A stretch of DNA of 64,000 bases from positions 19,717 through 83,716 of the forward strand of contig CAYVAG010000001.1 of NCBI GenBank assembly GCA_964449265.1, read 5' to 3'. Of this stretch, positions 1-64,000 are shown in pieces (within the stretch, counting starts at the first letter, position 1; each line of letters opens with the position of its first letter). Under the pieces are notes generated by a model. That model was given only the letters and a program-made list of their open reading frames with translations. It searched no databases and was not told the DNA's origin. The DNA comes from an uncultured Candidatus Peribacteria bacterium (GTDB taxonomy: Bacteria; Patescibacteriota; Gracilibacteria; BD1-5; UBA2023). The position numbers and the translations under genes were made by a program.

Positions 1-1114
1 CGGTCTCGCCAGGGAATCCGACGATGATATCGGTCGAGATCGAGAAGAGTGGATCTTTTGATCTGAGATAGTCGACCTGTGCTTTGAAGTCGGCATAGGT
101 ATGCTTACGATTCATCCGCTTAAGCATGCTATCGCTTCCTGACTGGAGTGCGAAGTGCAGATACGGACACATCGCAGGAAGGTCGAAGTGCGCATCGAGG
201 ATATCGCGAGTCATGTCATGAGGATTGGAGCTCGTGAATCGGATCCGATCGAGATTTGGGATTTCGCTGATCTCTTCGAGAAGCTCACGAAATGGTGTCT
301 TCACATCTCTACTCGCCCAAGTGAGCTCTTCACTATTCCAGAGCTTTGCGCGAGTTTCTTTGCCATAGCTATTCACATTTTGCCCAAGAAGCGTGATTTC
401 TTGCGTTCCGCTTGCTACGACTTCTCTGATTTCTCTCGTGATCTCATCTTGAGTACGCGAGACTTCTCGACCGCGAGTGTGAGGGACAATACAGAACGTA
501 CAGAAATTATCACACCCCGTCTGGATAATGATATTGGCACTCGATGGATTTTCCTGGAGTTGTTTTACTGCCAGATACTCATTGAATTTTGCATCATTCC
601 CGATATCTTCACCCGATATGAGAGAGAGGATCTTCGTGAGAAATGAGACTTCCTCGATACGGAAGACGAAGTCGATCGACTGTGATCGGAGAAAGAGCTC
701 ATCATCGTAGTTCATGAGCGAGTCTACAGATTCGAGAAGGGTGATTTTTTCCGCCTGATGACGCTTGAATTGGTCATTTTGTTCGCCAGTTTTTAGCTTT
801 CCATTCTCTACTCTGAGTCTCGCATACCGAGCAGCGAGTCCAGATTTCCGAACCATACAGCCTGTGATGCCAAATAGCGCACTCTTCCCTGTCTCATGAG
901 TCTTATGATATCGTTCGATCTCATGCATAAATCCGAATACTCGATCTTCTCATTTCTGGCGGACCGAACACGTATTCATGACGATGATATCAGCCTGTAC
1001 AGGATCGACGACCTTGCGCAGTCCAGCTGAGCGGAGTATCATATCGATCTTCTCGCTATCAGCATAGTTCATCTGACAACCGAAGGTTTTTATGTGGTAA
1101 GTTTTTATTTGCAT
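1..1114 (-). CDS. miaB: tRNA methylthiotransferase MiaB (radical SAM); C-terminus beyond window edge
   Basis: Minus frame from ATG 1114..1112 gives MQIKTYHIKTFGCQMNYADSEK..., radical-SAM box GCDNFCTFCIVPHTRG, and LLGQNVNSYG. One in-frame TGA (952..950) is read as Gly. Plus-strand track ORFs 155..710 are its antisense. Confidence 0.85.
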
Positions 1115-1142
1115 TTGACAATGTTATTATTTTGAATATATA
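1115..1142 (+). promoter_or_regulatory. putative sigma70-type promoter (TTGACA, 16 nt, TATATA)
   Basis: TTGACA at 1115..1120 and TATATA at 1137..1142 in the AT-rich divergent region next to the miaB start. Confidence 0.3.
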
Positions 1143-1166
1143 TTATATCAATTAATTTAATTTACT

Positions 1167-1370
1167 ATGTTTAGATCAACTCTACCCAATAATGAGGGTC
1201 CTCGTTTGAGTGATAAAACTTATGTTTTCAATGTCTCTACAGGAAAATCATGGGAGGGTACTTTAGCAGAAAGTATTCCATTCATGCCAAGAGATAAAAG
1301 GATGGCATTAATAAACAAAGTAGCTGCGACAGCTCGTATGGAGGCTTTGCTTGGAAAAATAATGCATTAA
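1167..1370 (+). CDS. hypothetical small protein (67 aa)
   Basis: ATG-to-TAA ORF with no in-frame TGA, more AT-rich than its neighbours, preceded by the promoter-like element. No family recognised. Confidence 0.3.
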   Translation: MFRSTLPNNEGPRLSDKTYVFNVSTGKSWEGTLAESIPFMPRDKRMALINKVAATARMEALLGKIMH

Positions 1371-1492
1371 ACAACGAATTTATATACTTTCTGACTTTTG
1401 CACATCACTTTCTCGTCTACTATACGCGCCAAAGTGATTTTTTCAACTCGAAGTGAGAACAAAAAGTGTGAACACCTCGTGAAGAAAGACCA

Positions 1493-1520
1493 TTGTAAAA
1501 TGGCATAGAGATCATATAAT
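1493..1520 (+). promoter_or_regulatory. putative promoter of ftsA-ftsZ (TTGTAA, 16 nt, TATAAT)
   Basis: TTGTAA at 1493..1498 and TATAAT at 1515..1520, about 100 nt upstream of the ftsA ATG. Confidence 0.35.
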
Positions 1521-1616
1521 GTGTCTAACAAATTTTCAGACAAATATACATATTCACTCTAGGAAACGATTTCTTCGGAGTACAATTTTTATACATCTCT
1601 CTAATCTACACAACAT

Positions 1617-2901: not shown

Positions 2902-4143
2902 ATGTCTACTGTTAACCCGAACGAAGATCGACTCAAAAAACTTCTGCGTACCAATATGGTAGCAACGCCCCCTACACCAACACCCCAAAATCACGTCGAA
3001 GTGAATGTAAATGGGTATATTTCTCCTATTGCCAATATCAAGGTGGTATGAGTCGGTGGTGGTGGAAACAACGCCGTCAATCGTATGATCGAATCTGGAA
3101 TCGAGGGTATCGAATTCATCGCGATCAATACTGATGCTCAAGCTCTCTTCACGAGCAAGGCTCAAACTCGTATCAATATCGGACGTGCTACTACTCGTGG
3201 TCTCGGCGCTGGAGCCAATCCTGAAACTGGGAAAAAAGCAGCAGAAGAGTCGAGCGAAGAAATCAAGCAAGTGCTCACTGGAGCTGATATGGTCTTTATT
3301 ACGTGTGGACTCGGTGGTGGTACTGGTACTGGTGCCGCTCCAGTGATCGCAGAAATCGCAAAATCACTCGGTGCACTCGTCGTCGGTGTTGTCACGAAGC
3401 CATTTGCATTCGAAGGACAGCGTAGAAGTAGTCAGGCATTCGAAGGATTCGAGAAACTGAAAGAAAAAGTCGATACACTCATCACTATCCCTAACGATAA
3501 GATCCTATCGATCATCGACAAGAAGACTCCTCTTCTCGAAGCGTTCCATGTCGCAGATGAGATCCTGAAACAAGGTGTACAAGGCGTATCTGACCTCATC
3601 ACTCACCCAGGACTGATCAATGTGGACTTCGCTGATGTACGATCGGTTATGGAAAACGCTGGATCTGCTCTCATGGGTATCGGATACGGAAGTGGGGAAA
3701 ACCGTGCCATCGAGGCAGCTCGTGGTGCGATCGAGTCTCCCCTTCTCGAACTCTCGATCAATGGAGCAAAAGGACTCCTCCTCTCGATCACAGGTGGTAC
3801 AGACCTCTCGATGTTCGAGATCGACGAGGCAGCTCGTATGATCACAGAGTCTTGCGATCCAAATGCCAACATCATCTTCGGTACTTCTATAGATGAGCGC
3901 TATACTGGTGAGATCAAGGTGACAGTTATCGCGACAGGATTCTCAGAAGAAACGAACGCTCAGCTCGGAAGCATGTCTCGAGGTGGATTTGGACAGAGTA
4001 CTATATTCGGGAAAGGAAGTCAGGGATGAGGCTTTTCTCCAAATAGAAACATACCACAAACAAATATGCCACAAGCTCCTGCGACCCCAGAGAATGACTA
4101 CGATGTTCCTGCATTTCTCCGAAATAAGATGCCGAAAAACTAA
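2902..4143 (+). CDS. ftsZ: cell division GTPase FtsZ
   Basis: ATG 2902. IKVV-[TGA][12 protein letters not shown], [12 protein letters not shown] (tubulin signature). Read-through of TGA 4027..4029 reaches the conserved C-terminal peptide DYDVPAFLR before TAA 4141..4143. Confidence 0.95.
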
Positions 4144-4202: not shown

Positions 4203-6512
4203 ATGCATCTGAAGGACTATACATTCGTGGCTCTGGATCTCGAGACGACAGGGCTTTCTCCCATACGAGATACTATTATAGAGGTAGCAGCCGTCAGATT
4301 TCACCTGGAAAAAGTGGGAGAGAAATATATCGCCATTACCGATGATGAACGCTCGATGCTCATAGATCCAGAGCGGAAACTCGAAGAGAATATCTCTATG
4401 ATCACGGGTATCACTGACTCTATGCTCAAAGGGAAGGTAAAATGGGGGGAAGTGAAAGAAAAGGTGAGAGAATTTATCGGAGATTCTATCATCGTCGGAC
4501 ACAATGTCCTCTTCGATACCGCTATGCTCGAATCACATGGAATCGATCTTAGTCGTTCTGTGGCTCTCGATACTTTTGAGCTTTCAGAGATATTCTCCCA
4601 AGAATCTGAAAGTCTCAATCTCGGGTTCCTCGCAGAAAAATATGGATTCAAGTGAGAAAGTGAACATAGAGCTCTCGATGATGTGAAACTTTCGATATGA
4701 CTTTTTTGTCATTACCTTTCGGAGATTTGTCACATGGACGATACGCATAGGCGATACTGGAAATATGCTCGAAGTCATGACAGTTCTCACATTCTCTGAG
4801 CTTTGCTTGATATCGTAGAAATCACATGAGAAGAAAATCTCGTATTCAGTGATATAGGAAGAGTATGAGTGCCTATTATAGAAAATAATAGTAAGTATGA
4901 AAAGTATGACAACAAATATAGTAGTACTTATTTCTCCTGAGGGAAGAGACAGTACAAGGAAATAGTAGAGTCGTCTCTTGAGTGATCAGAAAAGGTGCTC
5001 ATCCTCGCAGAATGATCGAAAGATATCATGTTTTTAAAACAGTTGCTCGAGGAAGAAGGACTTGCACCGACGGTATTTGCATCTCATGCAAGATATCTCT
5101 CTCGGATCGTACTACGGGAACAACTCGAGAAAAAATCATGGAAACGAAAAGAGACGATATTTCTCCTTAAGCTTCTGTCTTGGTCTCTGAGAACAGAAAC
5201 AGGACTTCTCGATGAGCTCAAATTCTATGGCGAAGAGCGTGAGTATCTATATCTCTTCAGGATGGCTAAAAATGAAGAGAATATCTATACAGAAAAGAGA
5301 GATCGGGCAATGGGAGAAGGCTCCATCATCATCTGTGATATCTACAATATTCCTGATATTTCGAAATACCGTACGAGTCTGATCGTATCCGATACTATCA
5401 ACATCGCAGAATCGCTTCGAAAAAAAGAAACCAAAAAAATAGATCTCACGAAAACTCTCCAGATAGTGGAAGCTCTCGATGGGGACAACGGAATAAAAAA
5501 TGATATCATAACTTCCCTTTCTCTCTTTCAGGGTATACTGGAGAAGATTCCTGAGAGGCCGACATGACCTGAGAAAAATACTCCTGGAGAATATGGAGAG
5601 ACCTATTTTATAAAACAAAAGGATATTTGGCATTACGGTTTTTGGGTGCTCATATGGATATGAGATACGCTCGAGAGTGCTCTCGAAACAGATATATTCT
5701 CAGGAAAATCCCCAAGTCTCTACGAAGAAAGAATCTGGGAAAGTATCCGAAAAGATATCCGAGCAATAACGACTCTCATATCACAAGAGTCTCTGGAGAC
5801 GAGTATCATACTGAACATAAATGGAGAAGATATGAGCATATCTCTCGTGCCTCGCAATATCAGAACAGAGCTCAGCTGACTCTTCGAAAAAGTCGAAGAA
5901 GATAAAAGAACACTTCTCGTCTATGGTAAGAAATCTGGTATTCTCGATAGATTTCTCCTCAGTGAATACACCATAGAGACACTCCCTGAGACAAACGAAG
6001 ATACTCGATGAATCCAAATAGTCGAGAATCTCAGTATAAAGAAGAGGAAGACGGTAATCCTTACGACGAGTACTCGACATATTCGAGAAATTTGCACTCA
6101 GATAAAAGGAAATTTTGATATAGAGCATGTTTTCGGGCAGTGAATATCCTGAGGAAAGGCAAAAATGGCGACACTTTTTGCTCGTAGAGAAGAGAAAAGT
6201 GTCCTCGTATGACTCATCGATACATGGCAAAATGAGTATACTCTCTGGGAAAATACCGATGAGGTCATACTTATCAAGATACCATTCGACCCTCCGACAG
6301 ATCCATACTACCTCGCACGCACTGTCGGTATGAAAAACAACTTCGAGGAATACAGTATGCCGATGGCACTTTCTGGGATAGAGAGTCTTATCATAAAGAT
6401 ATTATTAGCAAATGAGAATATTGATATCAGTATCTCTGATGATCGCTTATCTAAGACAAACTGGGGGCAAGTATTTCGAGAAAATATGAATCCATTTATT
6501 ATTATGAAATAG
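4203..6512 (+). CDS. dinG: DinG-family protein: DnaQ-like 3'-5' exonuclease fused to a helicase-like body with no recognisable Walker A
   Basis: One 769-aa frame with more than ten in-frame TGA. DEDD motifs ALDLETTGL, GHNVLFD, HRALDD. C-terminal DinG-like block GQGISGGKAKM...ILIKIPFDPPTDPYYLARTV...MPMALSGIESLI. Confidence 0.7.
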
Positions 6513-8598: not shown

Positions 8599-9861
8599 AT
8601 GCCCAATACTTCCATAGAACTTCTCAAAGATCAGATCTATAAATGAGAAAACATCTGACAAATCTGTGATCTTATGATCATCGGGGCAGTAGAGATGGGG
8701 TCATCAGATATCCATATCGAACCCCTGACCAATATTGTCAGACTCAGGTATCGTATAGATGGAGAGCTTCGAGAGGTTCTCGAATACCAGACATTTCTCC
8801 ATCAGCAGGTCGTCGCGAGATTCAAGATCATGTCGAATCTCAAGATCGATGAATCTCGCATACCACAAGACGGTCGTCTCTCTACAGTTATCAATAATAA
8901 AGCTCTCGACCTTCGTGTCTCAACACTTCCTACAGTTCACGGTGAAAAGATAGTGATGCGTATCGTAGATAAATCAAAAAAAATTCCCGATCTCATGGAC
9001 CTCGGTATCGAATGACACAATAAAGTGCTCCTCGAAAAAGCCCTAGCCCTACCAAATGGAATCATCCTCACTTCATGACCAACAGGTTCGGGTAAGTCGA
9101 CCACACTCTACTCATGCTTATCGAATCTCAATAAGCCTGATGTGAATATCATGACTCTCGAGGATCCAGTGGAAAGCCAAATCGATGGACTTAATCAGTC
9201 TCAGATGTTTCCAGATATTGGATATAACTTTGCCTACGGACTCCGTACAGCTCTTCGTCAAGATCCAGATATCATTATGGTATGAGAAATTCGTGATCAC
9301 GAGACGATCAACGTCGCGATCGAAGCAGCTCTGACAGGTCACCTCGTAGTATCGACGATACATACGAACTCAGCAGCCGAAACGCTCACTCGTATATTGA
9401 ATATGGGAATTCCCGCATTTCTTCTCCCTGCTTCGATCAATGCCATCATCGCACAACGACTCATCAGAAAACTCTGTCAACACTGCAAAAAACCAGTTCC
9501 CATGAATATGCTCGATGCTCATCTAAAGGGTCGAGTAGAAAAGGCACTCAAACGTACAGCAAAAGAAGAGCTTCTCTCTCGTATCTCTCCTGACATTTTA
9601 AAAAATCCCATATTTTATGAACCAGTAGGATGCCCAGAATGCGAAAATATCGGGTACAAAGGACGAGTTGGTATTTATGAAATTCTAGAAATTACTAACA
9701 GTGTGAAAAAGCTTATCATCGATGGTGCCAGTGCTGTGATCATCAATGAGGCTGCTATCGATGATGGGATGACTTCACTCGAGCAAGATGGTATCATAAA
9801 AGCGCTTAATGGGCGAACATCTCTAGAAGAAGTCTACGCCGCAGCAAAGGAAAACGCATAA
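8599..9861 (+). CDS. pilB: type IV pilus / T2SS assembly ATPase (PilB/GspE family), short form
   Basis: Walker A LTS-[TGA]-PTGSGKST, Asp box/Walker B DPDIIMV-[TGA]-EIRD, His box [12 protein letters not shown]. Tetracysteine CQHC...CPEC is typical of assembly ATPases. Confidence 0.9.
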
Positions 9862-11177: not shown

Positions 11178-11801
11178 ATGCATTCTCTCGAAGCAAAGAT
11201 CCGTACAGAGACAGCTCGTGATACTCGCGAAAGCGGTGCTATCCCAGCAGTCGTATACGGCAAGGATGTCCCTTCGACCAGTGTGGTTATCAGTACTTCC
11301 GATTTTACTCGTCTCTACCGAGAAGTGGGAAAAAATCATGTATTTACCCTGAAAGTTGAGAAAAAAGAGTATCCCGTACTGATCCAAGAACTCCAGAAAC
11401 ACCCTGTGACAGGAAAGGCTCTCCATATAGATTTTCTCACAGTGGATATGAAGGCAGTCATCCATGTACAGATCCCTATTCTTCTCATCGGTACTTCTCC
11501 TGCTGTTGTGGCAGGTGGACAGGTACACCAGAGTCTTCACTCTCTCGATGTGAAGTGTCTCCCAGCGGATGTCATCGATGGATTCGAACTCGATATCTCA
11601 TCGATCGATCATATCGGTAAGACTCTCCACGTAAGCGACCTCGTCGTCGATACGAAGAAGTATCAGGTACTCTCTCATGCAGAGGTAGCGATCGTCGGAG
11701 TCCATGCTGTGAAGGAAGTAAAAGAAGAAACAGTAGTAGTATCTGTCGCTGACGTTGGTGTCGCTACAGAGAAGAAAAAAGATGAAGAAGCTGCAGAATA
11801 A
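11178..11801 (+). CDS. rplY: 50S ribosomal protein L25 / general stress protein Ctc
   Basis: RESGAIPAVVYGK...VLIQELQKHPVTGKALHIDF, with an acidic/lysine C-terminal tail. No TGA. Confidence 0.88.
   Translation: MHSLEAKIRTETARDTRESGAIPAVVYGKDVPSTSVVISTSDFTRLYREVGKNHVFTLKVEKKEYPVLIQELQKHPVTGKALHIDFLTVDMKAVIHVQIPILLIGTSPAVVAGGQVHQSLHSLDVKCLPADVIDGFELDISSIDHIGKTLHVSDLVVDTKKYQVLSHAEVAIVGVHAVKEVKEETVVVSVADVGVATEKKKDEEAAE

Positions 11802-12806: not shown

Positions 12807-12820
<14 letters not shown>
12365..12820 (+). CDS. hypothetical protein
   Basis: ORF without in-frame TGA. Start uncertain (GTG 12326, ATG 12338 or ATG 12365). By eye it uses TTA/AGA more than neighbours. Its 3' end overlaps the ligA 3' end by 14 nt. 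Confidence 0.4.
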
Positions 12821-14909
<2,089 letters not shown>

Positions 14910-15467: not shown

Positions 15468-16796
15468 ATGCAATCTACCGTCACTCGCAAAAATAGCTAT
15501 ACCCTCTCGATCAATATCAAGGAATCAGGAGTCGAGCTCGAAAAAGCAAAGAAACACGTCATCGAAGAGATCCGTGCGAAAGGAAAAGTAAAGGGATTTA
15601 AGCAGGGATCTGCTATACCCGATCATGTCATTATCCGTGAGTACGGTGAGGCAGGTATCGAGCAACAGGCTCTCGATGAGCTCATCGGAAAGATCTATCC
15701 GAAAATCCTGAAGAAGGAAAATATCCTCCCCGTCGCTCCAGGAAACATCACAGAGATGAAGAGCAAAGATCCACTCGAGCTCACCCTCGAAGTCGAGGTC
15801 TTCCCTGAGATCGAGATCGACGAGAAAAAAATGAATAAAATCCGAGTCAAGAAAACTGCTGTAAGTGTCGAAGAGTCTGAGGTAGATCTCGAGATCAACG
15901 CGATCAAGGCACGATTTACACACTTTCATGAAGCAGGTCACCATACAGATGACGGAGCAGATACATCTGTTCTTACTATCGAGAAAGGTGATCGCGCGAC
16001 GATCTCTGCACAAGGATACGATAAGAAATGAGGTGAGCCAATCCTCGAGACAAAAGTCCCGAACTATCCTCTCGTGATCTGATCTGGATCATTTATCCCT
16101 GGATTCGAAGAGCATCTTATCGGTGCGAAAGTCGGAGATGAGGTCGCATTCGACATCACTTTCCCGAAGGATTACCACTCAGACGACTTCAAGGGTCGCA
16201 AAGTCCACTTCACCGCCTCTATCGAGAAGATTGAAAAACCACACACTCCAGCATTCGATGAGGAATTTATCGAAAAACTTCGCGGAAAGAAGACGGACAT
16301 GGCAGGATTCCGTGAGATCATCCGTGGTGAGATCGGATCCAAGAAAGAGTACGATGCTCGTACGAAGGATGAGGATGTCCTCATGAAGCAGATGCTCGAG
16401 ATCGCATCATTCGAAGTCGGACCATCACTTCTCGAGAACGAAGTGAACCAAGTCTACAGCGAACATACACAAAATCTCGAACAGCAAGGATACAATATCA
16501 AGCAATATCTCGACCACCTCAAGAAGAGTGAAGATATGTATAAAGATGAGATCGTGAAGCCAGAGGCAGAACGCCGACTCAAGGCTGAGCTCCTCCTTCG
16601 CAAGATCCGCGAGATGAAGGGTACTGAGCCCACAGAAATAGAGATCAAGGAAGAGATCGAGAAAGTCATCTCTCAGTATGGATCAGATGAAGTAGTCACT
16701 CGTCTCCGCGCGAAGCTCGTCCCTGGTGATAGTTACTACGAGGATATCCGGAATCGACTTGCCTATAGAAAAGTCGTCGATGAGTTCTTCGAATAA
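15468..16796 (+). CDS. tig: trigger factor
   Basis: Track ORFs 15468..16031 and 16299..16796 are in one frame with two TGA between them. FKBP-type PPIase core GSFIPGFEEHLIGAKVGDEVAFDITFP. Confidence 0.9.
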
Positions 16797-16952: not shown

Positions 16953-19694
16953 ATGAATCTCCTTTCCCTCATATTCTGAGACCCGAGCGCTAAGAAGCTC
17001 AAATCCTATCACAAAGAACTCGATATTATCAAAGGTATCGAATGAAAATTCCGTGAAGAAATAACGAATGTAGAACAGGTTCAAGCGAAAACGCACCAGT
17101 TCCAGTCACTCTTCGAGTGACTCAGTATCGATGATACAGATGAGCGCGTGAAGATTCGCCAGATTCTCGAGTCGATCAAATACGAAGCATTCGCTCTCCA
17201 TAGACGCGCATGTGAGATCATATATGGACAGACATTTGATCTCGGGAATGGACATAGTACAGAGTGGAATATGATCCCTTATGATGTCCAACTCATCGGT
17301 GCTCTCGCACTTCATGAAGGATCGATTGCTGAGATGCGTACAGGTGAAGGAAAAACCCTCGTAGCGACCATAGCAGCATATCTCAATGCTCTCGTTCCAG
17401 CAAGTGTGCATATCGTCACCGTGAACGACTATCTCGCAAGGCGTGATGCAGCCGAAATGGGAATTATCTATAATACTCTCGGGCTCTCTGTGGGAGTGAT
17501 AACACACGGTCAGTCATTCGAAGAAAAAACAAGAGCATATACATCAGACGTTGTCTACGCGACCAATAACGAACTCGGTTTCGACTATCTCCGGGATAAT
17601 ATGGCAATCAGAGAGGATCGCAAGGCTATGGGGAAAAAATGGCTCGCGATCGTCGATGAAGTCGACTCTATCCTCATAGATGAGGCTCGTACTCCCCTGA
17701 TCATATCAGCCCCTGACAGCGAACCCACGAGCAAATATGCACGATTTGCAGCGTTTGCACGATCGCTCAAAGATGAGACTGACTACAAAATCGACGAGAA
17801 GCAAAAAACAGCCACCCTGACAGAAGATGGTATCACGAAGCTCGAACAATACCTCGGAGTAGATAATATCTATGTAAGTCAACACTTCAATGATCTCCAC
17901 CATGTCGAAAATGCCCTGAAAGCATGAGCAGTATACAAGCGAGATATAGATTACCTTGTGCGCAATGACGAAGTCATGATCATCGACGAACACACAGGAC
18001 GTGTACTTCCGGGACGTCGATACTCAGATGGACTTCATCAGGCAATCGAGGCAAAGGAGGCAGTCACTATCCAGCAAGAGTCTCGTACACTTGCATCTAT
18101 CACTTTCCAGAACTATTTCCGCCTCTATCCGAAACTCGCTGGTATGACAGGAACAGCAAAGACAGAGGAAGAAGAATTCTACAAAATCTACCACCTGGAA
18201 GTCATCACCATACCTACCAATAAGCCAATCCGACGTATCGATCGTGGGGATCTTCTTTTCAGGAGTGAAAAATGAAAATATGCCTATCTTGTCCGACTTA
18301 TCAGCGAGCTCTATAAACATGGTCAACCCATACTCGTAGGAACGATATCAGTAGCAAAAAGTGAATACCTCTCGAATCTTCTGGAGAAAGAGAAAATACC
18401 ACACAAAGTACTCAATGCGAAACAAGATGCGTATGAAGCAGATATCATAGCGTGAGCTGGGCAGTATGGTGCTATCACTATCGCGACCAACATGGCGGGA
18501 CGAGGAACAGACATCAAGATCGATGAACGGGTCCGTACACTCACTGGCATAGTAAAGCTCGAGTGAGCTGCTGGACTTCAGGAGTATCCTCTCGGAGGAC
18601 TCTACGTCATCGGTACAGAAAAACATGAAACAAGACGTATAGACAATCAGCTTCGCGGGCGCTCTGGTCGTCAGGGTGATCCTGGACTTTCTCAGTTCAT
18701 GCTCTCTCCACAAGATGACATCATGCGGATTTTTGGAGGCAATAAACTCTTCGGCATACTGGCAAGTTTCGAGAGTCATCCTGAGTATGATCCTCTCATC
18801 GAGTCTAAGATGCTGACGAAAAATATCACCACCATACAGAAGCAAGTAGAAGGACGCAATTTCGATATACGAAAACATATCCTCGAGTATGATGATGTAC
18901 TCAATCACCATCGTCTCGCTATCTACTCACGCCGAGCAAAGATCCTCTCTGGAGCAGATATACATACGGAAGTTCTCGAGATGCTTCGAACTGAGGTAGA
19001 TCGTCTTGTCGAGATAGCGAAGTGAGAGGAAACAGAAATTTCTATAGATAGTATCGGACATATTATAGAGGAGGTGAATCTCTTTGCAGAGACATCTCTC
19101 ATCACCGCTCGTGATCTTGCAAATGCAGATGACTATGACGAGGTAAAGGATCGAGTTTTTTCTCTCCTTTCTGGAAAAATAGAGTGACTTCGAAATACAG
19201 GAACAGAAGAAGAGTTCGCAGAGTTCGAGCGTAGACTTTCACTCGCAGCTATCGATGAGCTTTGGATGAACCATATCGATAGTATGGCACACCTTCGAGA
19301 GGAGGTGGCATTCGAGTGATATGCACAGAAAAATCCACTCATCATATATAAAGAAAAGGCATACGATAAATTCGTCATTCTCGTCAATACTATAGGACTT
19401 CGTGTGACAAAAGGACTTCTCACAGCACGAGCAAAAGAAGGTATAGAAGAGGTCAATATGGAGGAAACCCTCCTCTCAAAATATGCAGAACAAGCTGCTG
19501 CAAGTCTCGATACATCTGCTATATTACAGGCAAGTCATCTCGGACATACTGAGTACCAAGATCCTGAGAGAGAAACTTCTCCTATACATGTAGGAAAGGC
19601 TCTAGAGAAGAATCCTGAATACACTGGCGTAGGCCGGAATGATCCTTGTCCATGTGGAAGTGGCAAGAAATATAAACAATGTCACGGAAAATAG
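16953..19694 (+). CDS. secA: preprotein translocase ATPase SecA
   Basis: 913-aa frame joining five track ORFs through TGA. Walker [31 protein letters not shown]-terminal zinc motif [14 protein letters not shown]. Confidence 0.95.
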
Positions 19695-25159: not shown

Positions 25160-25648
25160 ATGCCAAAACTCAAAATCCAAACCTGAGACGACAACGAGAT
25201 CCTCAGATCCGTATCGACTCCCATATCGCCCCAAGAAATCAAAAAGTATCGCTCCCTCGCAGAAGATATGGTAAAACATATAAAAAATCCCGACAATGGC
25301 GGAGTATGACTCGCAGCGCCTCAGGTAGGAGTGAATAAGCGACTCATCGTCGTCTCACTCATGAAAACATATGACGATGAAACATTTCGCACCATCGCGA
25401 TGCTCAATCCTGAGATTCTCGAACATTCAGAAGAAAAGTGTTCTGATAAGGAGGGCTGTCTCTCCGTTCCAGGAGAGTCGTGAGATGTCGAACGTTATAG
25501 TTGGGTAAAGCTCGCATTTCTCGATATCGACGGTCGGAAGTACGCGATGAAGCTCGAAAACCTCGCCGCTCGTATAGTCCAGCATGAAATCGACCACCTC
25601 GATGGAATACTCTTTACCGATAAGGCAGAGAATATCACATTCGCGTAA
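25160..25648 (+). CDS. def: peptide deformylase
   Basis: Motifs GV-[TGA]-LAAPQ, EGCLSVPG, QHEIDHLDG. Three in-frame TGA; TAA stop. Confidence 0.92.
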
Positions 25649-29909: not shown

Positions 29910-30185
29910 ATGAACGAACAAGCCCTAGAAAAACTCAAAAATTGACTCAAAAAACCTCATGTAAATAGTACATGTATCGGGTGTAGTGCGTGTACTGCCA
30001 TATCGGGAAATGTCTTTGAACTCGATGACAATGGACTCTCTCGCGTAAGAAAGTGTGATACCTACGAAGGACAAGACGTGGATGACTCTATCGCTGCTTG
30101 CCCGGTCAATGCAATCAGTTGGCAAGAAATGGATGAAAATGGAGAATATACAAATGGCGTCACTGAGCACATGGATGTAGCCTAG
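29910..30185 (+). CDS. small ferredoxin (single Fe-S cluster type)
   Basis: 91 aa with CIGCSACTAI...AACPVNAI (CxxCxxC...CP). One in-frame TGA; TAG stop. Confidence 0.7.
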
Positions 30186-38021: not shown

Positions 38022-38468
38022 TTATAAATATAGGTTAATGTAATTTTCTATTTCTAAGTAAGGTATGTGATAATCTTTCTTTGCCAGATTATAAGGGTCA
38101 GGTATTGGGAAAATTTTGATTTCTATATCTTTTTTGGAAAAATATTCATAAGGACTCAGTCCATTCTTCTTGCATTCGTGATCACATTGGCAGTCTTCTA
38201 TTGGGTTATAGAAAAAAATAACTTTTTCTATGGAGCTAATTTGCCTTTTACTCAGATCCGAAAGATACTTTATTCTCTTTTTTGAAATATCTAATCCGAT
38301 TTTTTGTTTTATAAAGTGGGTTATATTTTCATCTGGTACTCACCTATATTTTTCTTTTCTATCCTCACTACCAGCTATACTTAATGAGCTTTTTCAGCTT
38401 ACCTTAGAGTAGATAGCTTCAGCCATTTGAGACCTTCACATATTTGCTTTACAGATAAATAGAATCAT
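38022..38468 (-). CDS. low-molecular-weight phosphotyrosine phosphatase / ArsC-type family protein
   Basis: N-terminal P-loop ILFICKANM-[TGA]-RSQMAEAIY (C-X5-R-S). 148 aa. Confidence 0.7.
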
Positions 38469-43671: not shown

Positions 43672-46230
43672 TTATTTTGTTTTCTTTTTTGCTACAGTTT
43701 TTTTCTTAGCTGCAGGTTTCTTTTTAGAAGCAGTCTTCTTTTCCTTAAATGCTCATGGAACCTGATCGACGATCATTTCCTTTACCTCTTCGAGGGTGAG
43801 GGCTTGGATATCTGCGAGTTCTGTGATCTTCTTCCCATCACGCTTGAGGTATACATTCTCTTTACCGAACTTGATATACGGACCATAGCGACCATTCTCG
43901 ACCGAGATTTTTTCTTCAGGCCAGTTATGGATATAGCGATTAGCTTCTTTCTCGACTTTCGCGGCGATGAGACGCTCTGCTTCCTCTGGAGTGATGTTCT
44001 CGAAGTCGATAACTTTCGGTACGTTCACATAGAGAGACTTCCACTTGAGAAATGGACCAAAACGTCATTTCCCTTTTGTATACGGCTCTCCATCATACAT
44101 GCCTACTGGAGCATTCTCTATTTTTTTGGCTTCGAGGAGCTCGATGGCACGAGCCATATCGACAGCAAGTGGGTCTTCTGATCGAGGGATCGATACGAAG
44201 GCTTCATCGTACTTCACATACGGACCAAATCTTCCTTGTCCGATGATCACCTCTTTCCCCTCGTGGAGTCCGAGATTTTTCGGAAGCGAGAAGAGTCCGA
44301 GTGCTTCTTCGAGGGTGATATCATCGATCGACTGTCCAGGTGAGAGATTCGCGTAGCGAGGTTTCTCTTCTTCGGCAAGCTCGTCGGGAGTACCGATCTG
44401 CGCGACCGGACCAAACCGACTCATACGCACGAGGACACTTCGCCCTGTCTTCTCGTCTTTCCCGAGGATTCGCTCACTTGCAAATCGTCACTCTGTACCG
44501 AGAGCAGAGTCGATATTGGCGTGAAACGGCGTATAGAAATCGCCGAGCATCTTCTTCCAGTCGAGTTCTCCATCGGCTATCTTATCGAATTGGCTTTCTA
44601 CTTCTGCGGTGAAGCTATACTGCATGAAGGTTCCGAACTCTTTCTCGAGATAGTCGACGACGACAAACGCGATATCGGTCGGAAGGAGTTTCTTCGCCTC
44701 GATGACGACATATCCACGATCCTGTATCGTCTGTATGGTAGGCGCATAGGTAGAGGGTCGACCGATACCTTCACTCTCGAGCTTCTTCACGAGAGCCGCT
44801 TCACTATAGCGTGGCGGTGGGAGTGAGAATTTCTGGAGTCCAGAGAAATTTTCGGAAGTCACTGCATCTCACTTCTTCAGTGCGGGAAGTTTTTTCGACT
44901 CTTCATCTTCTTCGTCGTCTGTTCCTTCGATATAGAGCTTCATAAATCCTGGAAACTGTATGACTTCTCCTTTCGCGATCCACTCTTCGGTCGACTTCAT
45001 CTTCGGGATGAATCGATAAGTCGTCGTCTCGACGATCGCCTCTGCCATCTGAGATGCGACGGTACGTTCCCAGATGAGACGGTAGATACGAGCTTCCTGA
45101 CCGTCGAGCCCGAGAGACTCAGGAGTATGACTGATATCCGTAGGACGTATCGCCTCATGTGCCTCTTGTGCTGAGGCTTGTTTCGTTTTATATTTTCGGC
45201 CATTCGGGAGAGCGTACCCTTTTCCGAAGTGCTTCTCGATAAATGCTCGAGCCGAGTTCAGGGCGAGATCAGAGAGATTCACACTATCAGTACGCATATA
45301 GGTAATATGCCCATTCTGGTAGAGTCGCTGGGCGATATCCATCGTCTGCTTGACTCCATACCCGAGCTTGCGCGCCGCTTCTTGCTGAAGTGTCGATGTC
45401 GTGAATGGGGCCCCTGGAGTACGGCGAGATTCTTTTTTCTCGACATCATCAAGGGAAAAGCTCTCAGTATGAGGAAAGTGATAGACGAGACTTCCCTTCT
45501 TATCTTTGGTGGGTTTACTCAGGGAGGGATTGATCCCGTGTGAAGTGAAGAATGCCAATGCATCCGCTTCATTTTTGAATTTTTTTGCTTTTCCTCCGTC
45601 TTTCACGAACTCGATAGAGAAATCTATACCAGAAGCCGAAACAAGTGCTTCGATCTTCCATGACTCTTCGGGGACAAATGCCCGTATTTCACGTTCTCGT
45701 TCGACGAGAAGTTTCACAGCAACCGACTGCACACGTCCGGCAGAGAGTCCTGATCGTACCTTGCGCCAGAGCACAGGAGAGACCTCATATCCCACGATAC
45801 GGTCGAGGATTCGACGAGACTGCTGAGCATTCACGAGATCGATATAGATCTTGCGTGGATGCGCGATAGCATGTTCTATCGCTGTCTTCGTGATCTCATG
45901 GAATACGATACGGTCGACTTTCGCTGCATCGACACCGAGGGCTTCACAGAGGTGCCATCCTATCGCCTCTCATTCGCGATCCTCATCGGTCGCTATCCAT
46001 ATTTTATCTGCATCTTTAGCGTATTTTTTGAGTTCTGCGACTCGCTTCTTCTTCTCTGGAGATATCTCATACTCAGGAACGAATCAACCAGGAATATCTA
46101 TACCGAGGTTTTTGGCTGGGAGGTCGCGTATATGACCAAATGATGCTTCCACTTGATAGTCTTTTCCGAGAAATTTTTCGATAGTTTTTCCCTTCGCTGG
46201 AGACTCGACGATTACAAGATTTTTAGACAT
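43672..46230 (-). CDS. topA: DNA topoisomerase I
   Basis: 852-aa frame. Toprim [18 protein letters not shown], active-site region ITYMRTDS. C-terminal repeats [10 protein letters not shown] / [10 protein letters not shown] and a Lys-rich tail. Confidence 0.93.
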
Positions 46231-46495: not shown

Positions 46496-47092
46496 TTACC
46501 GCTTTTTACAAATATATATGAAAGCGGGTGGGAAGTTCATGGCTTCCCAGTCAACTTTCTCGATGGTAAAAAATTCCTCGACATCTTTTTTATTGGTCGC
46601 GAAGTACTGATATTGGATGTAAAGTCCATTTGGCATCAGAGCATCTCGTGTAGCTTTGAGAATTTTTTGCGCTGAGTCTTTCGGCATACTTCCAAGCGGA
46701 AGGGTTGATACAATGAGATCTACGGAAGATGGAGAAAATGTTCTGAGGCATGATTCTGCATCAAGATGGACGACTTGTATATGGGTATCTTGCAGATACT
46801 TGAGTCCGTCGTAGCGATCTCGTTCGATCTCACATACGGTAAAATCGGTATCTCATAGTTTCCGAGCGATAATAGCTCGCGTCATAGGTCCTGATCCTCA
46901 TCAAAGCTCCACGATAGTGTGAAGAGAAGATTGCCAATCAACATAGGTGAGCATCCTCTCTATGAGAAACGGTGATGACGAGAGTCAGTAGCCAATATTT
47001 TTCCAAAAAAGAAGCCACCTTGTACTCAGAGACTTGGGAAGAAATCTTCCAACTCATCTCCAGAAAGTAAGCCAAATATGGGAAAGTTTCAT
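46496..47092 (-). CDS. class I SAM-dependent methyltransferase
   Basis: Motif I VEL-[TGA][TGA]-GSGPMT, ...DLIVSTLPL..., LMPNGLYIQYQY. 198 aa. Confidence 0.7.
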
Positions 47093-47096
47093 AAAA

Positions 47097-47363
47097 TTAT
47101 CGAGCCACCTTCATCAGGTCTCTGATTTCGTCATAGTCTTTTTGTTCAAGGGAAGTTTTTTTATCGTTCATTTTCTCGAGTGCACAGACGATTTCTTCAT
47201 TGAGAGCCTGCCCCATAGCGCTTCTGACAGCAGAGAGTTGCTGGACGATGTTACTGACATTTGCCTCATCCTCGATCATCTGTATGACTCCGCGAATCTG
47301 TCATTCAATACGACGAAGTCTATCTCCAACACGTTTTTTTTGTGCTATATCTTTTATTTTCAT
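47097..47363 (-). CDS. CsoR/RcnR/FrmR-family (DUF156) repressor-like protein with non-canonical ligand positions
   Basis: RLRRIE-[TGA]-QIRGVIQMIEDEANVSNIVQQLSAVRSAMGQAL...IVCAL. The first Cys of the C-H-C set is absent. Confidence 0.65.
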
Positions 47364-47617: not shown

Positions 47618-47707
47618 TGGCGGAGGATAAGAGATTCGAACTCTTGAGGCGATTGCTCGCCTGCACCCTTTCCAAGGGTGTGCACTCGACCACTATGCGA
47701 ATCCTCC
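47618..47707 (-). tRNA. tRNA-Ser (anticodon GGA), CCA encoded
   Basis: GGAGGAT...anticodon stem-loop CACCC-TTGGAAA-GGGTG, long variable arm CAGGCGAGCAATCGCCTC, T arm AAGAG-TTCGAAT-CTCTT, ATCCTCC-G-CCA. Confidence 0.9.
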
Positions 47708-54167: not shown

Positions 54168-54242
54168 GCCGATGTGGCTCAGTGGTAGAGCACGCCCATG
54201 GTAAGGGCGAGGTCACGGGTTCAATCCCCGTCATCGGCTCCA
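54168..54242 (+). tRNA. tRNA-Thr (anticodon GGT), CCA encoded
   Basis: GCCGATG-TG-GCTC AGTGGTA GAGC-A-CGCCC ATGGTAA GGGCG-AGGTC-ACGGG TTCAATC CCCGT-CATCGGC-T-CCA. Confidence 0.92.
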
Positions 54243-60607: not shown

Positions 60608-61879
60608 ATGAATATTCGTGTTTTTTATAAAATCGCTGAAAACCTCTCTGGACCAAGAATCTCGACTGAGACACTCCGGGATACAAAATCCGAACTTCTG
60701 GCACTCAAAGAAGAACTCGGAAAGCTTCTCGTCTCAAAAGACGAACCAAAAAAAGAAAAACTAGAAAATATAAAGAGGCGTATTGCTCGACTCGAGCGTT
60801 TTGATGCACTCGAAAATAATGCCAGAAAGGACCAAAAAGATATCACGGAAATACTCAAGTGAAAAACTGCTGATACTATCAAAAACTCAGATATCCTTAC
60901 CCTGCGTAAGAAATGAGTCGATATCGCAAATCTCACCCTCGTCGATAATGCTAATCCTGAGAGAGAAATCCGCTCATCTGAGATAAAAGAAAAAGATACG
61001 TTTACAGTAAATTTCGGGAATAATACTTCTCTCAGAGATAGGACCGGGGCTGGAGATATCCTTCCGCCAAATATACGAAAGATTTCGATAAATGGGGTAG
61101 ACTGTGAGCGTAAAAACACTCCACGTCCTGGATACTACAATCACAAATGAAAATATGAACCCATCTATGATGGTTACAAAATAGAGATAGTTGCTCTATG
61201 AGAAACCACAGAAGCTGATACAGCTGGAAATGAGAGGCAGTGGAAGAGGGAGAGACTAGAGGATACTATAGAGAACGGGGGGAAATCTCTCACAGCCTTA
61301 GAAGAAGATATAGAGCTGCAAAAAATAGCAACAGATGAATTTCAGTCAAGATCAAAATATCGATCAACAAATTTTGATATAAATGATATTAATTCTTGAG
61401 ATAAGGGCCTCCTTGATTTTATAGCAATTGCTGAGGGAACATGAGACAATTACAATGCTATTTACGCAAATGGTAGTCAATCAAAAGAAAAATTTACTGA
61501 AATGACGCTTACTCAGATACTTGAGTATCAGAAGGAATACAAGAAGTGACGCTGATCTGCAGCTATAGGAAGATATCAATTCATGGATTATACACTAAAA
61601 GACATGATAAAGAAATACTCCATTGATCAAAATACCATATTTTCTGCAGAATTTCAGGATAAACTCGCATTTCTTAAACTGAATGAAAGAGGTCTTTCCA
61701 GTTTTAAATCATGAAGAATGCCTCAAGATGATTTTCAACTCAATCTAGCAAGAGAATGGGCATCTATAGCTAAAGATGATTCATGACTGAGCTATTATCA
61801 TGGAGACAGCATGAATAACAAAGCGTCTCGGGTAGGAACCCAAGTAACTCAAGTACTAGAAAAGCTCTATCAAGCCTAA
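60608..61879 (+). CDS. coiled-coil protein with C-terminal lambda-lysozyme-like (GH104-type lytic transglycosylase) domain
   Basis: 423-aa frame with nine TGA. C-terminal LLDFIAIAEGT-G-DNYNAIY...SAAIGRYQFMDYTLKDMIKKY...FSAEFQDKLAFLKLNERG...LAREWASIA parallels phage lambda R (AYSEGT...AAGRYQ...FSPKSQD...IKERGAL...WASLP). No signal peptide. Confidence 0.7.
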
Positions 61880-63096
61880 AACAACCTCCTCTGCCCCTCT
61901 GCCCCTCACTCGAGGGGATTTTTTATAGCGAGAAGTCGCTTATAGTCCTCCTTGAGATCATATCCCATGATTTCCAGATTTTCGAGAGAGAGAAGTATGT
62001 CGATAAATTCGCCAAGATCGATTTGTTTTGGATCGATGGTATATATATCACTTCATATTCCTATACTTATAAGAGTATCATTCGATGTCGCGAGATATAT
62101 TTTCTTCTCTGTTCTTATTCGATCCATGAGCATTTCGAGACTCGAAAGAGAAGTGATATGCTTCACCTCTTTCTTCTCGAGAGATTTCTTTTCTTCTCAT
62201 TTATAATCCTTCGGAAGAAGTGATCGAAATTCATATTTCTGGAGGATCGCGACATACTCTCCCTCTGCGAGTCCAGGAGCAAAAGGGGCCTCTGGAAGTC
62301 AGACTATCTCGAGATCGGTGATGATCGTCGCGAGCTTCTGTGAGAGAAATGCATTATCGATCTGATCGACGAGTCACTGTTTTATCTTATAGGAGAGGTC
62401 ACATGCATTATATTTTTCCTTATCGATTTCTATTATTTTTCACTCTTCATTCTTCACTCACAACTCTGTATATATACCCTCCAGGGTATCATATCGAGTG
62501 AGAAGATCTTGCGCTTTTTTTGGACCAAATCCGCTAATACCAGGAATATTATCTGAAGCATCTCCGACGATCGCGAGGTAGTCTCTCACTTGCTTCACTG
62601 GAACAGAGAATTTTTCGAGTACGTCTTGCTCTTTCATGAATTTTTGCTTCATCGCATCGAATATATGCACCCGTCCATCCCGAACAAACTGACAGAGATC
62701 TTTATCAGAAGAAATAATAACTACCTGATATTCTCGGTCATGCTGATGTGCTATAGAACCGATGACATCATCTGCCTCATACCCATCACGAAAAAGTATA
62801 GGGATATGCGCAGCACTAAATAGCTCGAACACTCCTTCGATCTGAGAACGCAGATTATCGGGCATGCTTTCACGCTGTCATTTATATTCAGCAAAGAGGT
62901 CTTCCCGAAAACTCTTCCCGACATCACTCGCGACTACGAGAGATGCACTCGGATCTTGATCAGAGAGAGACTTGAGGAATTTTGCTACTCCAAATATCGC
63001 ATTCACCGGCTTCCCTTCGCGAGTATTCATCTCGGGGATAGCATAGAACATGCGGTAGATGAGGTTATAGGCATCTATGATATAGAGGGTTTTCAT
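61876..63096 (-). CDS. 5'-3' exonuclease (Pol I N-terminal FEN domain) with vestigial 3'-5' exo-like tail, no polymerase domain
   Basis: LYIIDAYNLIYRMFY, DGYEADDVIGS, IISSDKDLCQ, GDASDNIPGISGFGPKKA. The tail ...IYLATSNDTL...MGYDLKEDYKRLL resembles the start of a Pol I proofreading domain. 406 aa, eight in-frame TGA. Confidence 0.8.
61902..61925 (+). terminator. intrinsic terminator after the lysozyme-like gene (inside the 3' coding end of the convergent gene)
   Basis: CCCCTC-ACTC-GAGGGG followed by ATTTTTT. Confidence 0.5.
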
Positions 63097-63097
63097 G

Positions 63098-63643
63098 TTA
63101 GAGTGTTTTTATTTTCTGTATTCTATTCACCATCCATTTTTCTCAAAGAGTATTTTCTATGCCTTCGATATCGAACCACCTGATATCATCGACTTCTGCT
63201 TCTTGTCGTGAAAATTCCACCGTATCTGGTATTTCTCCGAGATACATGATGTCATAGTGTTTATGCTTCGCTGTAGTCTTATATTCAGGAATATTGTGGA
63301 CATCGACATGGAATATCCCTCAGATGAGCTTAGGCTCGACCGATATTCCAGACTCTTCATGGAATTCTCTGATCGCGACATCGAGCGTATCGAGCTCGCC
63401 ATCACAGTGACCTCAGAATTGTACCCACATCTGGAGTTTTTTATGAAACATGAGGAGGACTCGAGTATGTTCAGGATTGGCAATCATCATAGATGCAGTG
63501 ATATGTCCATCGAGATTGTTCTTTACGAAGGCGAATTCCCTATATTTCTCGATCCATGCTATGATTTCATCACAAAAACCTCTTTCCGAAGAATCAGTCT
63601 GACCATGAACTCTGAGAGATGAAATGAGTGAAGAGAGGAGCAT
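63098..63643 (-). CDS. NUDIX hydrolase
   Basis: Nudix box [TGA]-GHCDGELDTLDVAIREFHEESGI. The stop lies 1 nt before the exonuclease start. Confidence 0.8.
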
Positions 63644-63646
63644 ATA

Positions 63647-64000
63647 CTATATTTTTATATGGGAAATAATACTATTAAAAACCTCATCTTCACTTCCATT
63701 CGCATCGATACGTATAAATTTTCACTCAAGTTTTTTCCACTTCGCACATTTCTCATATCATCGCACGATTTTTTTATAGAAATCTCTCCCCTCTTTCTCG
63801 AATTTATCTCAAGCATCATCGAAAGTACGAGAAAGAGCGAGGTCGACATCGATATCGAGATAAAAAATTATATCAGGAAGAAGTTTTCCTACAGCTTCTT
63901 TATTGATCCACAGTACCTTATTTATCCCGAGTCACTGAGCTTCTCACTGGATAGCGCACGATGAGAGGAATGATCGATCCGATACTACGATATCTCCACT
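63647..64000 (-). CDS. tmk: thymidylate kinase, C-terminal part (N-terminus beyond window edge)
   Basis: ...VVSDRSFLSSCAIQ-G-EAQ-G-LGINKVLWIN...PDIIFYLDIDVDLALSR...F-EKEGRDFYKKIVR-G-Y...IDANGSEDEVF. TAG stop at 63649..63647. Confidence 0.75.

Follow-up and report, generated by a model that had tools for sequence, protein, structure and literature searches.

Genes of the window and TGA as a sense codon

The window, the whole stretch of 64,000 nucleotides (64 kb) that was analysed, has a GC content of 42% and a gene content typical of small, CPR-like genomes, with genes for a type IV pilus and for cell division and few biosynthetic genes. With TAA and TAG as the sole stops, the gene model comprises 60 genes that cover 84% of the window. 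The features discussed here are as follows.

1..64000, no strand: whole window, coding, read with TGA as sense (Gly) and TAA/TAG as the only stops
2902..4143, + strand: ftsZ (Pfam Tubulin and FtsZ_C)
4203..6512, + strand: exonuclease (RNase_T) with a helicase C-terminal-like region, 15 TGAs
8599..9861, + strand: pilB/T2SSE ATPase, 5 TGAs (Pfam T2SSE, residues 17-412)
11178..11801, + strand: ribosomal protein L25/TL5, one of seven genes with no TGA
12807..14909, - strand: ligA (NAD-dependent DNA ligase), 9 TGAs
15468..16796, + strand: tig (trigger factor), 2 TGAs
16953..19694, + strand: secA, 10 TGAs, most of them at variable columns
25160..25648, + strand: def (peptide deformylase), 3 TGAs
30182..31408, - strand: ftsW (SEDS), 11 TGAs, including those in the motifs SYG-G-SS and EEL-G-F
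38022..38468, - strand: LMW-PTP/ArsC-like gene (Pfam LMWPc, 28 bits)
41859..43610, - strand: ABC exporter (permease and ATPase), 16 TGAs (Pfam ABC_tran)
43672..46230, - strand: topA (DNA topoisomerase I), 6 TGAs
46496..47269, - strand: possible SAM-methyltransferase-like ORF (weak Methyltransf_25 match)
47618..47707, - strand: tRNA-Ser(GGA), not a UGA decoder
54168..54242, + strand: tRNA-Thr(GGU; anticodon GGT), upstream of secE-nusG, not a UGA decoder

The number of open frames of at least 300 amino acids rises from 3, with all three stops, to 47 when TGA is read as sense. Reading TAG as sense gives 5 and reading TAA as sense gives 6, and the jump is specific to TGA, without a counterpart for either of the other codons. 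The original prediction held that the genes are broken at in-frame TGA and fused once TGA is sense, and that the coding sequences end in TAA or TAG with no use of TGA. Both statements agree with the gene model, which has 36 TAA and 23 TAG stops and in which none of the window's 60 genes truly needs TGA as a terminator. In-frame TGA occurs 254 times among 17,854 codons (1.42%), accounts for 19.7% of the glycine codons and is present in 53 of the 60 genes.

Single Pfam domains span several of these codons: T2SSE extends over the five in pilB, and FTSW_RODA_SPOVE (residues 10-390) over 10 of the 11 in ftsW. With TGA read through, the termini of homologues are reached in LigA (700/700) and SecA (913/913), which is then full length and includes the zinc-binding motif [12 protein letters not shown] at its C-terminus. 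FtsZ is likewise covered up to its C-terminal peptide, [10 protein letters not shown], which, as originally predicted, is reached only by reading through the TGA at 4027-4029, in the variable linker; it matches the C-terminal end of B. subtilis FtsZ (2vam), LDIPTFLRN. Glycine makes up 7.2% of the residues of the window's proteins when TGA is counted and 5.8% when it is not.

The amino acid inserted at TGA

Three column tests were applied. For the in-clade test, window codons were compared with orthologous codons in 15 related loci, retrieved with trigger factor (tig) as the query. Opposite the window's TGAs (693 cells), the relatives have TGA in 223 (32%), GGN in 318 (46%), Ser in 38 and Ala in 20, and neither Trp nor Cys in any of the 693. 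In the reverse direction, the relatives' 816 TGAs align to Gly in the window in 48% of cases and to TGA in 27%. The log-likelihoods are -703 for Gly, -1573 for Ser, -2072 for Cys and -2816 for Trp, placing Gly ahead of the next amino acid by about 870 units, and at 55 of 77 sites Gly is the majority residue once TGA is set aside. The out-of-clade test compared the FtsW protein with 142 diverse FtsW/RodA representatives (33-58% identity) at nine TGA columns, where the mean Gly fraction is 0.48, versus 0.62 at the protein's own GGN columns; Gly alone has positive log-odds (G +7.8, S -7.7, C -22.5, W -27.3). The third test masked TGA as X and aligned the proteins to solved structures: Gly occupies 23 of 43 aligned TGA positions (binomial P 3e-15 against a 7.5% background), Cys one and Trp none. 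About half of the TGA positions are non-Gly in distant homologues, as expected for a codon that is also used at variable columns. The three independent tests agree and, at the level of sequence comparison, support the glycine assignment (table 25) of the original prediction. That prediction had suggested such a tabulation of residue columns and had named a preponderance of Trp or Cys/Sec as contrary evidence; no such preponderance was seen.

Individual sites had also been assigned to conserved glycines, and all eight cited codons or codon pairs match the sequence in coordinates, strand, frame and quoted peptide. In ftsZ, TGA 3049-3051 lies in IKV(I/V)-G-VGGGGNNA, where B. subtilis FtsZ (2vam) has Gly and one relative (L014) has GGA. 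In pilB, TGA 9076-9078 encodes the Walker A Gly and 9283-9285 the Gly of IM(V/I)-G-EIRD; both are G in M. xanthus PilB (3jc8), and the relatives have GGA, GGT or TGA at the former and TGA in 11 of 11 at the latter. The def codon at 25307-25309 falls on G(V/I)-G-(L/I)AAPQ and that at 25481-25483 is also Gly; the two alignable sites are G in PDB 6jes, and the relatives have TGA or GGC/GGT. In the ABC exporter, the pair at 42156-42161 forms the GG of the LSGGQ signature, and the TGA positions align to G, G, GG, Q+G and S in ABCB19 NBD1. For these sites in FtsZ, PilB, Def and the exporter, the predicted glycine is also found in the solved structures.

Two further sites fared less well. The TGA TGA pair at 46898-46903 falls, as predicted, in a putative methyltransferase motif I (VEL-GG-GSG) judged from sequence, while the family match itself is weak (E 1.5e-4; 22.8 bits, under the Pfam cut-off of 27). 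The TGA at 38436-38438 lies in the C-X5-R loop of the LMW-PTP-like protein, and the claim that it marks an invariant Gly fails: the column is Cys in three solved LMW-PTPs (CxGNxCRS) and Ser in a Synechocystis arsenate reductase (CKRNSSRS), in alignments with weak E-values of 0.04-1. In ligA, the nine TGA columns read G,G,G,D,G,G,E,K,G in T. filiformis and G,G,G,G,G,E,E,A,G in E. coli, and the secA TGAs exchange with GGN within the clade.

Alternative readings of TGA

That TGA is still a stop, in a window that is a pseudogene graveyard or is full of sequencing errors, would fit the fragmentation of nearly every gene under table 11, and PilC is called as a 68-aa fragment in the Logan assembly of the same locus. 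We nonetheless give this practically no credence: the 254 in-frame TGAs have no in-frame TAA or TAG counterparts, the 60 genes are full length and compactly spaced, the sites are kept as TGA or GGN over 15 independent metagenome-assembled genomes (MAGs), and Pfam domains and PDB alignments run unbroken across them. Table 4, the code of Mycoplasmatales and several endosymbionts, translates TGA as Trp. ORF structure alone cannot distinguish it from table 25, and the public collection's entry for the window's FtsW (P0001) carries W at 11 of 11 TGAs. The residue columns, however, make translation as Trp exceedingly improbable. Trp is absent from both the in-clade cells and the 43 PDB positions, and is disfavoured by the in-clade likelihoods and the FtsW log-odds given above; Trp columns are easily recognised, as 91% of TGG cells align to Trp. 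Trp content would moreover reach an implausible 2.2%, compared with 0.77% from TGG alone.

It may also be that TGA is mostly Gly but at certain sites, the LMW-PTP P-loop among them, is used as a stop or for Sec/Cys. The TGA on a Cys column there favours such dual use, as does a slightly lower Gly conservation at TGA-coded than at GGN-coded positions. Against it, TGA shows no 3' pile-up (10 in the last 15 codons of genes versus 12.4 expected), orthologous C-termini coincide with TAA/TAG in the relatives, the only apparent TGA terminator is a 100-N scaffold gap, Cys is found at just one of the 43 PDB positions, and prfB is absent from BD1-5 genomes (PMC6851277). As the Synechocystis homologue has Ser at the LMW-PTP site, that column is not strictly Cys, and dual use appears very unlikely. 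Selenocysteine recoding in particular was rejected, given UGA in 53 of 60 genes and the single aligned Cys. Finally, the genome could be an absconditabacterial (SR1) one with an extended code, in which UGA is Gly and CGA/CGG are Trp; CGG has been predicted by Codetta to encode Trp in some Gracilibacteria as well (PMC8629427). In a leave-one-codon-out test of 62 codons, made by in-clade comparison only, TGA alone departs from its standard meaning and the other 61 sense codons are standard. CGA (117 per 10,000 codons) is opposite Arg in 551 of 761 cells and CGG (29 per 10,000) in 97 of 174, with Arg the best fit by 1121 and 138 log units, respectively; both codons also align to Lys, and Trp never occurs opposite either codon in the genes compared. 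Because both codons are Arg, the code is plain table 25 rather than the extended one, and since the relatives are also labelled Gracilibacteria, the SR1 reading is highly improbable.

The code in its clade, its decoding and its annotation

Labels of the 15 related loci comprise 12 Candidatus Gracilibacteria, one Patescibacteria group and two 'Peribacteria'. Trigger-factor identity to the Gracilibacteria- and Patescibacteria-labelled relatives is 56-83%; the two 'Peribacteria' loci, including a 97% match, are equally recoded, and the TGA-sense signature is found in all. These labels support placing the window, probably, within Gracilibacteria of the BD1-5 type (NCBI Candidatus Gracilibacteria, now Candidatus Altimarinota). 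Of the original attribution to Gracilibacteria or Absconditabacteria, the first part stands and the second falls with the Arg assignment of CGA and CGG. TGA is in frame in nearly all genes, exchanges freely with GGN and lies on Gly columns of standard-code homologues. This is almost certainly a BD1-5-type Gracilibacteria genome that uses table 25, with UGA as an ordinary Gly codon, UAA and UAG as the sole stops and the remaining codons standard.

Table 25 in Gracilibacteria/BD1-5 is reportedly described in Rinke 2013, and the Absconditabacteria (SR1) code in Campbell 2013. The window shares with known Gracilibacteria/BD1-5 (Hanke 2014, PMC4032931; Sieber 2019, PMC6851277) UGA as Gly, UAA/UAG stops and otherwise standard codons, with no difference in kind; its GC content falls in the upper portion of the 0.21-0.53 range known from reports. 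This group corresponds to GTDB class JAEDAM01 (gTranslate preprint). Absconditabacteria share UGA as Gly and a presumed tRNA-Gly(UCA) mechanism, but are predicted to read CGA/CGG as Trp, rarely used (Shulgina & Eddy 2021, PMC8629427), whereas the window uses both for Arg, CGA commonly. Table 4, in Mycoplasmatales and insect endosymbionts, captures the same stop, with RF2 loss as the proposed enabling step, and produces identical ORF symptoms under table 11, so gene callers confuse the two codes; it inserts Trp, however, which is found at no TGA column of the window.

By analogy with the clade literature, a dedicated tRNA-Gly carrying the anticodon UCA would decode UGA; prfB, the gene for release factor 2, would have been lost, so that RF1 would recognise both UAA and UAG. 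In BD1-5 genomes prfA is present and prfB absent in all (PMC6851277), and the same paper refers to proteomic validation of UGA as Gly in the clade, citing Hanke 2014. No tRNA(UCA) occurs in the 64-kb window or in the 15 related loci; the window's only tRNAs are the tRNA-Ser(GGA) and tRNA-Thr(GGT) listed above, and it has no release-factor gene. A metagenome scan recovered 38 canonical 74-nt tRNAs with anticodon UCA (G1:C72, C2:G71, G3:C70, U73). The contigs that carry them show the TGA-sense ORF signature but have no gene in common with the window and thus provide no tie to its genome.

The code was already known, and the window adds one more Gracilibacteria genome and nothing new in kind. As originally stated, it is nevertheless the key to the window, whose relatives are Gracilibacteria with the same signature, and a table-11 annotation, which fragments nearly every gene, is invalid. 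The public collection used table 4 for this contig, giving full-length proteins with Trp in place of Gly, and 109 of the 120 closest public FtsW proteins of the lineage have Trp at conserved Gly columns. With table 4 about 1.4% of residues are wrong, precisely in motifs like Walker A, LSGGQ and SYGGSS, and such mistranslations contaminate the family alignments, the HMMs and the predicted structures of the whole clade. Most public protein predictions for the lineage are still wrong on the code, and further reading of the window requires table 25.

It is possible, though doubtful, that UGA has yet to become a fully equal Gly codon in this clade, being mildly disfavoured and still spreading. Its share of the Gly codons varies between 4.8% (L014) and 33% (L015) in relatives whose GC content is similar, and within the window it falls with codon bias (rho -0.36) and protein conservation (rho -0.67); its columns are also slightly less Gly-conserved than GGN columns. 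Should such spreading hold for the whole genome, the MAGs would offer a natural series in which the advance of a captured stop codon across a proteome could be followed.

Reading frames and the gene model

The G+C content of the window is 42%, and TGA occurs as a trinucleotide roughly twice as often as TAA or TAG. When all three stops are enforced, only three stop-free frames of at least 300 amino acids are present, versus 47 when TGA is read as sense. Treating TAG as sense yields five such frames and treating TAA as sense yields six; the effect on open reading frames is specific to TGA.

Genes were called by codon-model dynamic programming with stops limited to TAA and TAG; a greedy longest-ORF approach, which selected several antisense ORFs, was dropped. 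The resulting model contains 60 genes, which occupy 84% of the window; of their 17,854 codons, 254 are in-frame TGAs. Pfam searches, in which TGA was masked as X, show that most are ordinary single-copy bacterial genes, and single domain matches span several TGAs. Annotated in this way are MiaB-like, FtsA, FtsZ, PilB, PilC, L25, trigger factor, TruB, AI-2E transporter, Mur ligase, Dus, glycosyltransferase, Wzy-like, FtsW, GNAT, TrpRS-type, HisIE, TopA, ABC exporter, RNase HII, adenylate kinase, SecE, NusG, GreA, RlmN-like, FemAB, 5'-3' exonuclease, NUDIX and thymidylate kinase genes. LigA, SecA and Def are identified from matches to solved structures, not from Pfam.

The dus gene (26295-27419) carries an in-frame insert of about 90 nt, present only once in the window, whose nested hairpins comprise outer arms of 15 nt, a perfect inner hairpin of 15 nt and one further small stem. 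The insert has a predicted fold of -57 kcal/mol (z = -10.8) and divides the Dus Pfam match into two parts. It matches nothing in Rfam and may represent a palindromic mobile or REP-like element that the coding sequence tolerates. Rfam detects only RNase P RNA and one tRNA in the window.

Other features of the window
26966-27051, plus strand: hairpin insert within dus
51746-52167, plus strand: RNase P RNA, bacterial class A (Rfam, 168 bits), filling the otherwise gene-free interval that separates RNase HII from adenylate kinase
27416-28549, minus strand: glycosyltransferase ORF with Glycos_transf_1 N-terminal and a weak Glyco_transf_4 match C-terminal, the reverse of the usual order
40164-40763, minus strand: 199-aa Lys/Ala-rich protein with no TGA, only 1% Gly and a weak histone H1-like HC2 match below Pfam's cut-off
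12261-12839: 579-bp spacer between the convergent genes c10 and ligA; its ORF at 12338-12820 (161 aa) has no Pfam match and no coding signal, and its counterpart in the closest relative (97% trigger-factor identity) is a 100-N gap

The amino acid at TGA

A trigger factor scan with one genome per GTDB species recovered 15 related loci, each with about 20 kb of synteny and 56-97% identity, labelled as Candidatus Gracilibacteria (12), Patescibacteria group (one) and 'Candidatus Peribacteria' (two). The TGA-only ORF signature is present in all 15. Orthologues were aligned with TGA masked, and the codons were then compared. Opposite the window's TGAs (693 alignment cells), relatives have TGA in 223, GGN in 318, Ser in 38 and Ala in 20, and neither Trp nor Cys occurs in any of the 693. 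In the reverse direction, 816 TGAs in the relatives lie opposite Gly (48%) or TGA (27%) in the window. Gly is the commonest non-TGA residue at 55 of 77 sites. For comparison, the window's GGA lies opposite TGA in 12.5% of cells, and its TGG opposite Trp in 91%. When the residue profile opposite TGA was scored against the substitution profiles that these alignments yielded empirically for each of the 20 amino acids, the log-likelihoods were -703 for Gly, -1573 for Ser, -1762 for Ala, -2072 for Cys and -2816 for Trp. Judged by codon exchange and likelihood, TGA behaves as a synonymous Gly codon within this clade.

One related locus (L014; JAQTON010000002.1, isolate STA_89) has long ORFs under table 11 and was considered as a standard-code outgroup. 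However, its in-frame TGAs in FtsA and Tig lie opposite the window's GGG and GGT codons, and TAA or TAG terminates its genes; it is simply a rare user of TGA. Its trigger-factor identity is 56% and its G+C content is 42%, as in the window. TGA makes up only 4.8% of its Gly codons and is missing from its 919-aa SecA; under table 11 the locus looks almost standard.

Outside the clade, FtsW, which contains 11 TGAs in the window, was compared with FtsW/RodA proteins found by searching 1.84 billion cluster representatives exhaustively and without a profile. The query was P0001, the public collection's entry for the window's FtsW, and TGA positions were masked afterwards. The search returned 150 proteins at 33-58% identity, eight of which had Trp at strongly conserved Gly columns, presumably as table-4 (TGA as Trp) translations of recoded genomes, and were removed. 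Among the 142 kept, the mean Gly fraction is 0.48 at the nine usable TGA columns versus 0.62 at 27 GGN-coded Gly columns, and the protein's one TGG column, a control, is 0.96 Trp. Gly alone has a positive summed log-odds score at the TGA columns (+7.8), followed by Ser (-7.7), Arg (-10.3), Ala (-11.0), Cys (-22.5) and Trp (-27.3).

Solved structures give a third comparison. X-masked queries were aligned to PDB chains of standard-code organisms, counting the first alignment per protein. Gly occupies 23 of the 43 positions opposite TGA (binomial P = 3e-15 against a 7.5% background), Cys one and Trp none.

Residues opposite TGA in solved homologues
LigA: G,G,G,D,G,G,E,K,G (T. filiformis); G,G,G,G,G,E,E,A,G (E. 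coli)
SecA: H,G,E,P,E,A
ABC exporter: G,G,GG,Q+G,S
FtsW: R,G,I,Q,A,G,G,G,G,H
Def: G,G
FtsZ: G, then K in the linker
PilB: V,A,G,G
LMW-PTP: C,K,G

The original prediction, that TGA is read as Gly under translation table 25, cited eight TGA codons or codon pairs as examples; all have the correct coordinates and strands and are in frame with the peptides quoted for them. Those in FtsZ (3049), PilB (9076 and 9283) and Def (25307) and the pair in the ABC exporter's LSGGQ motif correspond to Gly in homologues of solved structure. The FtsZ C-terminal peptide is, as proposed, reached only by reading through the TGA at 4027, beyond which YDVPAFLRN corresponds to LDIPTFLRN in B. subtilis. The methyltransferase motif-I pair is consistent in sequence only, its domain match falling below Pfam's cut-off. 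The LMW-PTP example does not hold as an invariant Gly. In the P-loop of this LMW-PTP/ArsC-like protein, C-K-A-N-M-(TGA)-R-S (TGA at 38436-38438, minus strand), the position before Arg holds Cys in three LMW-PTP structures and Ser in an arsenate reductase from Synechocystis; the E-values of these alignments are weak. The gene itself has a weak coding score and a Pfam match of only 28 bits.

This column is where an unlikely dual use of TGA, mostly as Gly but as a stop or as Sec/Cys at particular sites, might be sought. With table 25, a Gly simply stands at this Cys/Ser position of the protein. As for termination, the terminators of the gene model are 36 TAA and 23 TAG, in keeping with the earlier claim that coding sequences end in these codons and that none needs TGA as a stop. 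TGA is distributed along genes like GGN, with 10 in the last 15 codons versus 12.4 expected; orthologous C-termini in the relatives coincide with TAA or TAG, and the SecA, LigA, PilB and FtsZ alignments extend to the ends of their homologues. Gene ends, relatives' C-termini and homologue ends thus give no sign of TGA as a stop. Two convergent genes in the closest relative seemed to have TGA terminators; these were an artefact of a 100-N scaffold gap masked to X. The related loci, FtsW/RodA proteins and solved structures together support Gly, and the observation behind the original prediction is confirmed.

Code variant, lineage and decoding

CGA and CGG are predicted to encode Trp in Absconditabacteria (SR1), as is CGG in some Gracilibacteria (PMC8629427), and the likelihood test on the related loci was therefore extended to every codon. 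The best-fitting amino acid departs from the standard code for TGA only. CGA and CGG (117 and 29 per 10,000 codons) fit Arg best, by 1121 and 138 log units, and neither lies opposite Trp in any comparison of the window with the related loci. The code is thus plain table 25 and the lineage of the Gracilibacteria/BD1-5 type; the original attribution to Gracilibacteria or Absconditabacteria stands in its first part and not for SR1.

The GTDB class of this table-25 group is JAEDAM01 (gTranslate preprint), and at NCBI the name 'Candidatus Gracilibacteria bacterium' is now placed under Candidatus Altimarinota. The closest relative (L002, CAYSEP010000003.1) and a second locus with 78% trigger-factor identity (L005, CAZQUZ010000001.1) are both labelled 'uncultured Candidatus Peribacteria bacterium' (NCBI phylum Peregrinibacteriota). 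They have the full TGA-sense signature, with TGA as 18% and 20% of Gly codons, and the label looks like a taxonomy-mapping error.

In the standard account, UGA would be decoded by a tRNA-Gly with anticodon UCA, and RF2 would have been lost. The 64-kb window encodes only tRNA-Ser(GGA) and tRNA-Thr(GGU), with no release factor or GlyRS gene, and no tRNAs were found in the 15 related loci. All BD1-5 genomes are reported to lack prfB and to have prfA (PMC6851277), and the same paper, citing Hanke 2014 (PMC4032931), describes UGA as Gly as validated by proteomics. A pattern combining a UCA anticodon loop with a standard T-loop and an acceptor end of C70-G71-C72-U73 was used to scan metagenome contigs. 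The resulting 120 loci include 38 canonical 74-nt tRNAs with anticodon UCA, G1:C72, C2:G71, G3:C70 and U73. These represent 16 distinct sequences of one tight, very conserved family, with the clade consensus GCGGATATGATGTAGTTGGTGTAGCATAGCAGACTTCAGCTCTGTTTGTACGGGTTCGAGTCCCGTTATCCGCT.

Examples of tRNA(UCA) on metagenome contigs
L027, 13691-13764
L053, 6358-6431

These genes are usually clustered with tRNA-Ala(UGC), Tyr(GUA), Arg(UCU), Glu(CUC) and Leu(UAA), the first two being the usual neighbours, on contigs of 25-41% G+C whose ORFs are long only with TGA as sense. The anticodon loop is C/A-U-U-C-A-G-C, placing G at position 37; ARAGORN labels the tRNAs 'SeC' from the anticodon alone. A shared-gene search found no genes common to these contigs and the window. 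The family supports the mechanism for this kind of organism, not for the window's own genome.

Codon preference and public translations

The TGA share of Gly codons ranges from 4.8% to 33% among the relatives. Within the window it is zero in seven genes (including those for L25, adenylate kinase, a STAS protein and the histone-like protein) and reaches 58% (7/12) in one for a GNAT protein. The share declines with codon bias (rho -0.36, P 0.007, n = 54 genes) and with protein identity within the clade (rho -0.67, P 0.011, n = 13), a hint that among the Gly codons TGA is the least favoured. Of the 254 in-frame TGAs in the window, 122 (48%) are followed by G.

UGA as Gly is a known signature and, as the original prediction acknowledged, not new in itself; beyond confirmation, the analysis adds that the table-25 code here lacks the arginine-codon changes of SR1, and that one cited example, LMW-PTP, was wrong. 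The public collection translates the window's contig with table 4, and in P0001 every one of the 11 TGAs of FtsW (30182-31408, minus strand) appears as W. Of the 120 closest FtsW proteins, 109 have at least one Trp at 29 conserved Gly columns, with up to 19 per protein; five of the 11 clean ones are named Gracilibacteria proteins by NCBI. An independent assembly of the locus, a 1582-bp Logan contig (L001, SRR12404947) corresponding to about 10.7-12.3 kb of the window, was the sole match, found via the TGA-free L25. There PilC is called as a 68-aa fragment, which is the table-11 failure mode. Public protein sets thus mishandle this lineage in two ways, by truncation under table 11 and by placing Trp at TGA under table 4.
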